Shown here: one piece after another, positions 4,728 to 60,585 of the stretch
Position numbering within the stretch: position 1 is the first letter of the stretch
Layout: the number at the start of each line of letters is the position of its first letter
From: Escherichia coli O127:H6 str. E2348/69
GTDB lineage: Bacteria; Pseudomonadota; Gammaproteobacteria; Enterobacterales; Enterobacteriaceae
DNA length: 64,000 nucleotides
Reading direction: 5' to 3' (one strand)
NCBI RefSeq assembly: GCF_000026545.1
Contig: NC_011601.1
The notes under the pieces: generated by a model
What the model was told of the DNA's origin: nothing
What the model saw: the letters and a program-made list of their open reading frames with translations, nothing else
The model's database searches: none
Translations under genes and position numbers: made by a program

Positions 4728-4834
4728 AACAGTCACCTGAGAGTAGAGATGATTCTCAATCATAGTAGCAAATACAGTACTTTACACGTTAAATGCTATG
4801 CTTAAAGAAGTTATCTTCGCGTAAGGAGCTTATG

Positions 4835-5140
4835 ATGAAACTCTCAACCTGCTGTGCCGCGCTTCTGCTCGCCCTCGCCTCACCCGCGGTACTCGCCGCG
4901 CCGGGATCCTGTGAGCGCATACAGCGCGATATATCACAGCGCATTATCAATAATGGCGTACCCGAAAGCAGCTTCACGTTAAGTATTGTACCCAATGACC
5001 AGGTTGATCAGCCTGATTCCCAGGTCGTCGGGCATTGCGCTAATGATACGCATAAAATTCTCTACACCCGTACCACCAGCGGTAACGTCTCTGCTCCCGC
5101 GCAGTCTACCCAGGATAACGCGCCTGCTGAACCGCAGTAA
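4835..5140 (+). CDS. ynfD: DUF1161 family periplasmic protein
   Basis: ORF 4793..5140; start at internal ATG giving 101-aa product with signal peptide; AAGGAG upstream. Confidence 0.8.
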   Translation: MKLSTCCAALLLALASPAVLAAPGSCERIQRDISQRIINNGVPESSFTLSIVPNDQVDQPDSQVVGHCANDTHKILYTRTTSGNVSAPAQSTQDNAPAEPQ

Positions 5141-5156
5141 CACATTATCGACTGAA

Positions 5157-5179
5157 CGCCGGATACGACACATCCGGCG
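5157..5179 (+). terminator. GC-rich hairpin downstream of ynfD (stem CGCCGGA/TCCGGCG), REP-like, weak U tract
   Basis: inverted repeat read directly from sequence 17 nt after ynfD stop. Confidence 0.3.
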
Positions 5180-5225
5180 ATTTGAACATACAACATAATC
5201 CCACCTTATTACTCATACCCTTCTA

Positions 5226-5239
5226 TTGATATGGATTAA
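5226..5239 (+). promoter_or_regulatory. FNR-like site TTGAT-N4-ATTAA upstream of ynfE
   Basis: 9/10 match to FNR consensus TTGAT-N4-ATCAA about 100 bp upstream of ynfE ATG; ynfEFGH is an anaerobic operon. Confidence 0.35.
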
Positions 5240-5338
5240 TAATTATTAACCCCAAATGGGTAGACTCTCTCTATTGTTAGCGCGCTAAATATTCAATATA
5301 TAAACATTTATATAACGATAAAGAACAGGGAGTGAGTT

Positions 5339-7765
5339 ATGTCCAAAAATGAACAAATGGTGGGCATCAGCCGCAGAACACTCGTTAAATCTACCGCGAT
5401 AGGTTCTCTGGCGCTGGCTGCAGGCGGTTTTTCTTTGCCGTTTACCCTGCGCAGTGCAGAAGCAGCGGTACAACAGGCCAACGAAAAAGTGGTCTGGGGT
5501 GCCTGTTCCGTCAACTGTGGTAGCCGCTGTGCACTTCGTCTGCATGTTAAAGATAATGAAGTGACCTGGGTGGAAACTGACAACACCGGCAGCGACGAGT
5601 ATGGCAACCATCAGGTACGCGCCTGTTTGCGCGGTCGCTCCATCCGTCGGCGTATTAATCATCCCGATCGCCTGAATTACCCAATGAAACGCGTGGGCAA
5701 ACGCGGCGAAGGCAAATTCGAACGGATTAGCTGGGATGAAGCCCTGGATACTATCGCCAGTAGCCTGAAAAAAACCGTCAAACAATATGGCAATGAGGCT
5801 GTATATATTCAGTACTCTTCGGGGATTGTTGGCGGCAATATGACCCGCTCTTCTCCATCAGCCTCGGCGGTCAAACGCCTGATGAACTGCTACGGCGGTT
5901 CACTAAATCAGTATGGCTCCTACAGCACTGCGCAAATTTCCTGTGCCATGCCCTACACCTACGGCAGTAATGATGGCAACAGCACCACGGATATTGAAAA
6001 CAGCAAGCTGGTCGTGATGTTTGGTAACAACCCGGCTGAAACCCGCATGAGCGGCGGTGGCATCACCTATCTTCTTGAAAAAGCACGCGAGAAATCGAAC
6101 GCAAAAATGATTGTTATCGATCCGCGATATACCGATACGGCTGCTGGTCGTGAAGATGAATGGCTTCCTATTCGCCCGGGCACCGATGCCGCGCTGGTTG
6201 CGGGTATTGCCTGGGTATTGATTAACGAAAATCTCGTTGATCAACCTTTTCTCGATAAATACTGCGTCGGCTATGACGAAAAAACCTTACCCGCAGATGC
6301 ACCCAAAAATGGTCACTATAAAGCCTATATTCTTGGTGAAGGCGATGATAAAACAGCGAAAACGCCGCAGTGGGCTTCGCAAATTACAGGTATCCCGGTA
6401 GACCGTATCATCAAACTGGCGCGTGAAATTGGCACAGCAAAACCCGCTTATATCTGCCAGGGCTGGGGGCCGCAACGCCAGGCAAACGGCGAGCTGACGG
6501 CACGCGCTATTGCTATGTTGCCTATTTTGACGGGCAATGTCGGCATCAGCGGCGGAAATAGTGGTGCGCGTGAATCGACCTACACCATTACCATCGAACG
6601 CTTGCCGGTGCTGGATAATCCGGTCAAAACGTCAATCTCCTGCTTCAGCTGGACAGATGCTATCGATCATGGCCCGCAAATGACGGCAATCCGCGACGGC
6701 GTCCGGGGCAAAGATAAACTAGATGTGCCCATTAAGTTCATCTGGAACTACGCGGGAAATACCCTGGTTAATCAGCATTCTGACATCAACAAAACGCATG
6801 AAATTCTGCAGGACGAATCGAAATGCGAAATGATTGTGGTCATCGAAAACTTTATGACCTCATCGGCAAAATATGCCGACATTCTGCTGCCAGACCTGAT
6901 GACCGTTGAGCAGGAAGATATTATTCCTAACGACTACGCCGGTAACATGGGATATCTCATTTTCCTCCAGCCTGTCACCAGCGAAAAATTCGAACGCAAA
7001 CCAATTTACTGGATCCTGAGTGAAGTCGCGAAACGTCTTGGACCTGACGTCTATCAAAAGTTCACTGAAGGTCGCACGCAGGAACAATGGTTACAACATC
7101 TGTACGCCAAAATGCTTGCCAAAGATCCGGCGTTACCGTCTTACGACGAATTAAAAAAAATGGGTATCTATAAGCGTAAAGATCCCAATGGTCATTTTGT
7201 CGCCTACAAAGCATTTCGTGACGACCCCGAGGCAAATCCACTTAAAACGCCTTCCGGTAAGATTGAAATTTATTCCAGCAAGCTGGCGGAAATTGCCCGT
7301 ACCTGGGAACTGGAAAAAGATGAAGTGATAAGCCCACTGCCGGTTTATGCCTCAACCTTTGAAGGCTGGGACTCCCCTGAACATAGTGCCTTCCCACTGC
7401 AACTGTTTGGTTTCCATTACAAATCCCGTACGCACTCGACCTACGGCAACATTGATGTCCTGAAGGCAGCCTGCCGTCAGGAAGTGTGGATCAACCCTAT
7501 AGATGCACAGAAACGTGGGATTGCCAACGGCGATATGGTGCGGGTGTTTAACCATCGTGGCGAAGTTCGGCTACCAGCCAAAGTGACACCACGCATTCTC
7601 CCTGGAGTTAGTGCTATGGGCCAGGGAGCCTGGCACGAGGCCAATATGTCTGGCGATAAAATCGACCACGGCGGCTGTGTGAATACGCTAACCACTCTGC
7701 GCCCTTCACCACTGGCGAAGGGAAACCCGCAGCACACTAATCTGGTCGAGATCGAAAAAATATAA
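5339..7765 (+). CDS. ynfE: Tat-exported molybdopterin oxidoreductase catalytic subunit, DmsA paralog (selenate reductase YnfE)
   Basis: ORF 5339..7765 (808 aa); twin-arginine motif SRRTLVK; DMSO reductase family; recognised as YnfE. Confidence 0.95.
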   Translation: MSKNEQMVGISRRTLVKSTAIGSLALAAGGFSLPFTLRSAEAAVQQANEKVVWGACSVNCGSRCALRLHVKDNEVTWVETDNTGSDEYGNHQVRACLRGRSIRRRINHPDRLNYPMKRVGKRGEGKFERISWDEALDTIASSLKKTVKQYGNEAVYIQYSSGIVGGNMTRSSPSASAVKRLMNCYGGSLNQYGSYSTAQISCAMPYTYGSNDGNSTTDIENSKLVVMFGNNPAETRMSGGGITYLLEKAREKSNAKMIVIDPRYTDTAAGREDEWLPIRPGTDAALVAGIAWVLINENLVDQPFLDKYCVGYDEKTLPADAPKNGHYKAYILGEGDDKTAKTPQWASQITGIPVDRIIKLAREIGTAKPAYICQGWGPQRQANGELTARAIAMLPILTGNVGISGGNSGARESTYTITIERLPVLDNPVKTSISCFSWTDAIDHGPQMTAIRDGVRGKDKLDVPIKFIWNYAGNTLVNQHSDINKTHEILQDESKCEMIVVIENFMTSSAKYADILLPDLMTVEQEDIIPNDYAGNMGYLIFLQPVTSEKFERKPIYWILSEVAKRLGPDVYQKFTEGRTQEQWLQHLYAKMLAKDPALPSYDELKKMGIYKRKDPNGHFVAYKAFRDDPEANPLKTPSGKIEIYSSKLAEIARTWELEKDEVISPLPVYASTFEGWDSPEHSAFPLQLFGFHYKSRTHSTYGNIDVLKAACRQEVWINPIDAQKRGIANGDMVRVFNHRGEVRLPAKVTPRILPGVSAMGQGAWHEANMSGDKIDHGGCVNTLTTLRPSPLAKGNPQHTNLVEIEKI

Positions 7766-23644: not shown

Positions 23645-25240
<1,596 letters not shown>

Positions 25241-31499: not shown

Positions 31500-33862
<2,363 letters not shown>

Positions 33863-60015: not shown

Positions 60016-60585
60016 TTTATCCTCTTTTAAAACATCTTTTTAACGTCAATGATGCCATTGCTTAGCGTTATCATCAGGTAATCCGTTTGCAGATAACCAA
60101 AAATGCAGGTTAATTGTTTTTTTAATAGCGAAATTTTCTATTCATTCGTGATCAAGATCACGATGCTGTGGCAATGTAAAAACATTGCAAGAATCAGGTT
60201 AAAATCATTTAAATTTACACACGCAACAAATATTGACCTACAAAACATTACACTGGCTATTTTTCAGAAACTGGACTATCTCACTAGGAAAAACGCCAAA
60301 TAGTAGAACATATCGCCATTGAGCCATCATCACCCTCTCAGGGTAGTGAAAAAATCTGCCGTTACGTTTTTTGAAAAATTTAACGCTGGATAACATTTCC
60401 CGGAATGGTTGAATTCCCCGCCTCAGTTATATGTAACAGATTATTACAAAGGACTTGTCTGAAAGTGCAAGATAGTGAACATTACCTGCCGTTTCCCCTC
60501 CCACTATAACAATTGCGCGTATGTTTTTTAGGCATAACGCGAGAAAGCACCCCCGTTAATATGGGATGTAAAAAAAGAGGTAAAA

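Follow-up and report, generated by a model that had tools for sequence, protein, structure and literature searches.

The question raised by this locus is whether the 14 bp at 5226-5239, which lie upstream of ynfE in a 64,000-nucleotide stretch of DNA from Escherichia coli O127:H6 str. E2348/69 (the whole stretch is referred to as the window), are a working FNR operator of the ynfEFGH-dmsD operon or only resemble one. The earlier note, which was made from the letters of the sequence, had described an FNR-like pair of half-sites followed by a possible -10 element at class II spacing, and had connected them with anaerobic expression of the operon. According to the sequence analysis, the comparison of orthologous promoters and the published data described below, 5226-5239 is almost certainly the FNR operator of ynfEFGH-dmsD, whose sigma70 promoter depends on FNR in the class II manner. 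The coordinates of the promoter elements are listed in Table 1.

Table 1. Elements of the ynfEFGH-dmsD promoter region and their positions in the window
Feature	Position	Strand	Place or description	Basis
FNR binding site, TTGATATGGATTAA	5226..5239	+	centre 5232.5 = -40.5 from the implied transcription start	sequence, PWM, published ChIP-seq, conservation
Probable NarL operator (7-2-7), TAACCCC-AA-ATGGGTA	5247..5262		centre -18.5	conservation, published nitrate repression
-10 hexamer, TAGACT	5261..5266	+	-12 to -7	sequence; distance from the start that follows from the published -40.5
Implied transcription start, A	5273	+	+1	published -40.5 and coordinate transfer
ynfE	5339..7765	+	first gene of ynfEFGH-dmsD; 808 aa, Tat-signal molybdoenzyme subunit	ORF list, RefSeq

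Sequence searches and data sources

FNR sites were scored by using a symmetrised, leave-one-out position weight matrix (PWM) built on 62 other ChIP-bound sites from Table S6 of Myers et al. 2013. NarL operators were searched for as inverted heptamers with the 7-2-7 consensus TACYYMT-NN-AKRRGTA. For the comparison of promoters, the first 300 amino acids of YnfE were scanned against one genome per species, and 80 loci were obtained from Escherichia, Citrobacter, Salmonella, Enterobacter, Klebsiella, Kluyvera, Leclercia, Lelliottia, Cedecea, Serratia and other genera; the 300 bp before the gene were searched for the best PWM match. The footprint alignment was made from 45 distinct ynfD-linked promoters anchored on the FNR site. 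The occupancy and expression data come from K-12 or Nissle, in which the FNR site is identical to that of the window.

The site and the geometry of the promoter

Read on the + strand, 5226-5239 matches TTGAT-N4-ATCAA at 9 of 10 positions. The left half-site is the consensus and the right one is ATTAA instead of ATCAA, with T for C at site position 12 as the sole mismatch. The site lies upstream of ynfE at a distance of 113 bp, and the ORF at 5339-7765 and the RefSeq annotation agree in making ynfE the downstream gene; the RefSeq name of the identical sequence is 'selenate/tellurate reductase subunit YnfE'. The match and the assignment of the gene given in the earlier note were therefore both reproduced.

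The annotated gene order around the site is ynfC, ynfD and ynfE, with ynfD upstream of the site. The mechanical ORF for ynfD covers 4793-5140 (ATG at 4793, 115 aa) and the 306-nt RefSeq version covers 4835-5140 (101 aa). At 5157-5179, 17 bp past the ynfD stop codon, there is a hairpin, CGCCGGAT-N7-ATCCGGCG, which looks REP-like; it is followed by no T-run and was not called by the terminator scan. Two differences between the window and K-12 (5166 and 5171) sit in its loop.

In their Table 1, Myers et al. 2013 (PMC3688515) give the ynfEFGH-dmsD operon one site, at -40.5, and count the operon in category 1, 'directly activated by FNR'; the transcription start sites (TSS) of that table were drawn from EcoCyc / Kim et al. 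2012. With the site centre at -40.5, +1 falls at 5273 and TAGACT at exactly -12 to -7, and a 5' UTR of 66 nt up to the ATG at 5339 is implied. The FNR site thus lies near -41.5 and overlaps the -35 region, as judged from the published -40.5, for which the TSS is second-hand. According to Myers et al. 2013 (PMC3688515), the site of most FNR-activated promoters is near -41.5, a position from which sigma70 and alpha are within reach of FNR. The hexamer TAGACT was read at 5261-5266, where the earlier note had put it, the published -40.5 gives it the class II spacing that had been claimed, and the published TSS is compatible with a site near 5232.

Among the alternatives, the one that survives best, though it is very unlikely, is that FNR binds here but not in a strictly class II manner, the true start being displaced by anything from a few bases to one helical turn. 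Xu et al. in 2009 may, reportedly, quote a slightly different position for the ynfE TSS. The second-hand origin of the TSS (taken by Myers et al. from EcoCyc / Kim et al.) leaves room for such a shift, and a search of the text of the Kim et al. 2012 supplements for ynfE gave no TSS entry, only the b1587 row of an orthology table. However, in 46 of 46 promoters, and also at dmsA, where the site is at -41.5, a single -10-like element is conserved, 28.5-29.5 bp away from the centre of the FNR site, and this conserved distance between the site and the -10 element keeps the geometry within 1-2 bp of class II.

Strength of the match and occupancy by FNR

A 9/10 match to the FNR consensus is by itself common, at roughly one per 10-20 kb. 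In the window, 7 sites with one mismatch or none were found against 2.78 +/- 1.57 expected from shuffles, and the count of 7 was reached in 2 of 100 shuffles. The leave-one-out PWM score of the ynfE site was 13.46 bits, inside the range of the bound sites (11.8-21.1, median 15.2); counting against it, this score falls in the lower fifth of the bound sites, 10 of 62 scoring below it. Within the window the site ranked 4th, and 4 sites reached its score while 0.64 were expected. By sequence, the ynfE site is a real but modest FNR match, which stands above chance only weakly.

Three other sites in the window scored as high as the ynfE site, and the matches near its score (12.7-13.7 bits) were located at 60148-60161, 42502-42515, 53941-53954, 23808-23821 and 31699-31712. 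In the Table S6 entries of Myers et al. 2013 (PMC3688515), the match at 60148 (GTGATCAAGATCAC, near tppB) and that at 42502 (in uidA) are given as predicted and not ChIP-bound, and so are the weaker ones at 53941 in rsxA and 23808 in pntA. The match at 31699-31712 (TTGAGGTAAAACAA) is within ORF 31521-32462. Since equally good matches in the window were reported to be unbound, a good consensus match is insufficient and the context must decide.

The sequence TTGAGATAGCGCAA at 14578-14591 scored 10.0 bits with the FNR PWM and is intergenic, 74 bp upstream of the minus-strand ORF 13839-14504, which corresponds to ynfK by position. The window probably has here a second FNR site that is already known; for ynfK, the entries of Myers et al. 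2013 (PMC3688515) give a ChIP-bound FNR peak (1665276, ln p -9.37) and an fnr-dependent expression ratio of 0.06.

For the ynfE site, the context is available from K-12, the promoter of which (ynfEFGH-dmsD, also ynfEFGHI) has the same FNR 14-mer, -10 element and spacing as the window; the 14-mer is at 1657956 in NC_000913.3, the coordinate orthologous to 5226. With the 1,976-bp offset between U00096.2 and v3 coordinates, this position corresponds to 1655980 (1655980 + 1,976 = 1657956). The identical 14-mer is entered for ynfE at 1655980 (U00096.2) in Table S6 of Myers et al. 2013 (PMC3688515; PLoS Genet 9:e1003565); the entry has a PatSer score of 13.01 and an ln p of -11.5, is marked at an FNR ChIP-seq peak and is the single predicted FNR site given there for this promoter. 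The centre of the peak was quoted as 1,656,036 (Table 1) or 1,656,063 (supplement) by the same authors (PMC3688515), and is thus not precisely on the motif but 50-76 bp downstream of its centre (1,655,986.5).

The supplements of Myers et al. 2013 (PMC3688515) further give a sigma70 ChIP value at ynfE of 27.27 under aerobic and 708.59 under anaerobic conditions, and fnr-/WT expression ratios of 0.027, 0.026, 0.026 and 0.058 for ynfE, ynfF, ynfG and ynfH, respectively, so that expression of ynfE was down about 37-fold in the fnr mutant. Activation by FNR and repression by NarL of the ynfE promoter were reported by Xu, Busby and Browning 2009 (J Bacteriol 191:3172), according to three independent papers that cite it. 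FNR occupancy, fnr-dependent expression, the anaerobic rise of sigma70 and nitrate repression were thus obtained by published experiment on identical or near-identical sequence. Anaerobic expression of the operon, as supposed in the earlier note, is upheld by these values, and occupancy by FNR, on which that note had made its reading depend, was found in K-12. Papers on ChIP-exo or NarL heptamers that name ynfE were also searched for, and no further FNR or NarL occupancy data were obtained from them. In two papers, RyhB was reported to down-regulate ynfEFGH/ynfF post-transcriptionally. The FNR site, its occupancy and position and the regulation of the ynfE operon by FNR and NarL are already known from the literature of 2009-2013.

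It could be argued from the abundance of near-consensus sites in the window, and from the unbound sites of equal PWM score, that 5226-5239 is a chance match without function and that ynfE is expressed anaerobically through another site or indirectly. This is extremely unlikely, because the published ChIP-seq puts FNR on the ynfE promoter with the 14-mer as its single predicted site, because expression collapses in the fnr mutant, and because the TTGA and TAA of the site are invariant in 45 promoters, where their distance from the -10 element is constant too. Position in the promoter, published occupancy and conservation together raise the ynfE site above chance.

Conservation across genera

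In most ynfD-linked loci, the best FNR match was found 107-117 bp from the ATG. In the alignment of the 45 promoters, TTGA (positions 1-4) and TAA (positions 12-14) had 2 bits per column, while the flanks had 0-0.4 bits. Position 12 was T and never C in all 45 distinct ynfE-type promoters, and the 'mismatch' is therefore itself conserved. All orthologous promoters have TA at an offset of 35-36 bp from the start of the FNR site, and the spacing between the FNR site, the 7-2-7 element and the -10 element is fixed across orthologues. Within E. coli, the exact 34-mer at 5212-5245 is present in 5031 complete genomes, and a 1.1-kb stretch around the site, which matches E2348/69 with 100% identity, was found in 5385 of 5426 complete genomes. 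The sequence match, position, conservation and architecture of the ynfE FNR site were all read directly from these sequences.

Two further conserved blocks were observed. A CCCTT block (5218-5222) lies 4-8 bp upstream of the FNR site across genera, and an ATYRTTAGC-like motif (ATTGTTAGC in the window, 5273-5281) begins at the implied +1. The first could be an extended contact of FNR or of the alpha subunit, and the second an element of the initial transcribed region or one related to an sRNA.

At some loci of Klebsiella oxytoca and Klebsiella spallanzanii, Yokenella, Pluralibacter and relatives (L006 1366-1409, L007, L011 1406-1449, L014, L029, L044 1380-1423 and L047), the FNR position is occupied by TTGACCGGGGATAA, which scored only 3-5 bits with the PWM. 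There, TTGACCGGGGATAA sits in a perfect or near-perfect palindrome of 12-16 bp (for example GATATTATCCCTGG-ATTGA-CCGGGGATAATATC) with a predicted RNA hairpin of -19.5 to -27.8 kcal/mol, and the NarL 7-2-7 and the -10 element are retained. Other genera have a GC-rich hairpin behind ynfD that is placed 10-25 bp further upstream, and the palindrome may combine the ynfD 3' stem-loop with the FNR half-site. Folding of both strands does not discriminate between an RNA hairpin and a protein-binding palindrome.

The fixed distance to the -10 element also bears on the proposal that TTGATA (5226-5231) is the sigma70 -35 element of an activator-independent promoter and not an FNR half-site. TTGATA agrees with TTGACA at 5/6 positions, and many orthologues have TTGAC as their half-site; yet no -10-like hexamer lies 16-18 bp downstream, the conserved -10 element starts 35 bp after the first T and leaves a gap of 29 bp from the end of TTGATA, which is too long, and expression is strictly FNR-dependent. 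No -35-like hexamer partnering TAGACT was found, and a consensus scan of 5100-5400 for stand-alone sigma70 promoters gave 0 against 1.2 expected from shuffles, as is expected of an activator-dependent class II promoter. A stand-alone sigma70 promoter with TTGATA as its -35 element was rejected for lack of a partner -10, and this proposal is hardly credible.

Binding mainly by another protein of the CRP/FNR family such as CRP, the sites of which are inverted repeats related to those of FNR, is just as improbable, and a CRP site was rejected, since ATTGATATGGATTAAT matches TGTGA-N6-TCACA at only 5/10 core positions, the initial T of TTGA, by which FNR sites are told from CRP sites, is invariant in the orthologues, and the published ChIP was done with FNR and the regulation is fnr-dependent. 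Even when all four alternatives are added up, they account for only a small part of the probability, and an FNR operator of class II position is the reading retained.

The probable NarL 7-2-7 element

Between the FNR site and the start, a probable NarL operator was recognised at 5247-5262 from its sequence. Its right heptamer is perfect (the reverse complement TACCCAT fits TACYYMT), its left heptamer matches at 5/7 positions, and the operator shares its last two bases with the start of the -10 element. With 2 mismatches to TACYYMTNNAKRRGTA, the E. coli element is at chance level in the window (3 found, 2.73 expected), and the assignment to NarL therefore rests on conservation and on published nitrate repression. 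As for conservation, all 46 ynfE-type promoters have a 7-2-7 element, always starting 21-22 bp past the first base of the FNR site, with 0 mismatches in 8, 1 in 20, 2 in 12, 3 in 5 and 4 in 1 of them, and its final TA always opens a -10-like hexamer (TAGACT, TAACAC, TAAACT and others). As for regulation, nitrate- or NarL-dependent repression was found in the literature, both in Xu et al. 2009 as cited elsewhere and for the Nissle promoter.

The left heptamer is degenerate in Escherichia: the window has TAACCCC, K-12 and E. albertii share TAACCCA, and E. whittamii has TAACCTA; in Citrobacter, Enterobacter, Lelliottia and Salmonella it is TACCCAT, TACTCCT or TACCCCT.

Going beyond the earlier note, the promoter probably carries a NarL operator that overlaps its -10 element, and it is nitrate-repressed as well as anaerobically activated. 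The exact contact site of NarL in the ynfE promoter would be expected within this element.

Comparison with other alleles and promoters

Six intergenic positions (5166, 5171, 5245, 5253, 5268 and 5306) distinguish the window allele (phylogroup B2) from K-12, and none of them is in the FNR site or the -10 element; the difference at 5253 (C for A) is in the weak left NarL heptamer. Nissle 1917 is identical to the window over the whole intergenic region. The Nissle ynfEFGH promoter, when combined with a stronger synthetic RBS, was reported to give 13.3% under anaerobic conditions and 0% with oxygen or 20 mM nitrate, and with its native RBS it was below the threshold of the circuit. The ynfE promoter has been used as a biosensor of anaerobiosis and low nitrate in the mouse gut.

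A close likeness was found in P1 of dmsA, the promoter of the paralogous operon in E. coli, which has the same layout of a 14-bp FNR site, 7 bp, a 7-2-7-like element and a -10 element with its first base 35 bp past the initial T of the FNR site, as in ynfE. The E. coli dmsA FNR site is TTGATACCGAACAA (474-487 of L082), and the dmsA-type loci, with about 68% identity and no ynfD, show the layout of ynfE. According to Myers et al. 2013 (PMC3688515), who cite Lamberg and Kiley 2000 and Bearson et al. 2002, dmsA is class II with FNR at -41.5 and is repressed by NarL. The two promoters differ in the right half-site, which is AACAA or GACAA in dmsA (C kept, T lost) and ATTAA in ynfE (T kept, C lost), and in the -10 element, which is TAATAC(T) and TAGACT, respectively. 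The best NarL heptamer of E. coli dmsA, TACTCCT, is 3 bp upstream of its place in other genera.

The class II promoters of narG, nirB, yfiD, focA-pflB and pykA (-40.5/-41.5) share with ynfE the position of FNR and the anaerobic rise of sigma70. Stronger sites are found at nirB and narK (TTGATTTACATCAA, 17.06) and at yfiD (17.25), compared with the published score of 13.01 for ynfE. NarL activates at narG and nirB, whereas it represses at ynfE.

Proposed mechanism and meaning

On the class II reading, [4Fe-4S]-FNR would dimerise when oxygen is absent and would bind TTGATATGGATTAA about 40.5 bp upstream of ~5273. The bound FNR would overlap the place of the -35 element, which is absent from the ynfE promoter, and would contact RNA polymerase and recruit it to the weak -10 element TAGACT (5261-5266); these contacts at ynfE are supposed to resemble those at dmsA and other class II FNR promoters. 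With nitrate, phosphorylated NarL would bind the 7-2-7-like element at 5247-5262, which runs into the -10 element, and by occluding the latter would block transcription.

For discovery the result has little weight, since the FNR site of ynfE was already published, and the points that are mildly new, the conservation of a T that departs from the consensus and an FNR-NarL-(-10) module common to dmsA, are descriptive only. A real operator was recognisable here from the raw sequence, for which the 9/10 match alone would not suffice. The footprint across genera is a small and clean illustration of the FNR-NarL-(-10) module in two paralogous operons of the DMSO-reductase family.

More tentatively, and with rather less than even confidence, it may be proposed that the FNR site, the NarL 7-2-7 and the -10 element are one module which was inherited intact by dmsA and ynfE when the ancestral operon was duplicated, and that the defect of the right half-site has been kept by selection and not by drift. 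The latter part is suggested by the T at position 12 in 45/45 ynfE-type promoters, while dmsA-type ones keep the C and lose the neighbouring T. The idea of such a module with tuned affinity was not found stated in the literature examined and may be present in Xu et al. 2009. If it is true, the weak affinity for FNR would be a tuned property of the promoter, for example one that sets a low-oxygen threshold or leaves room for NarL to win.
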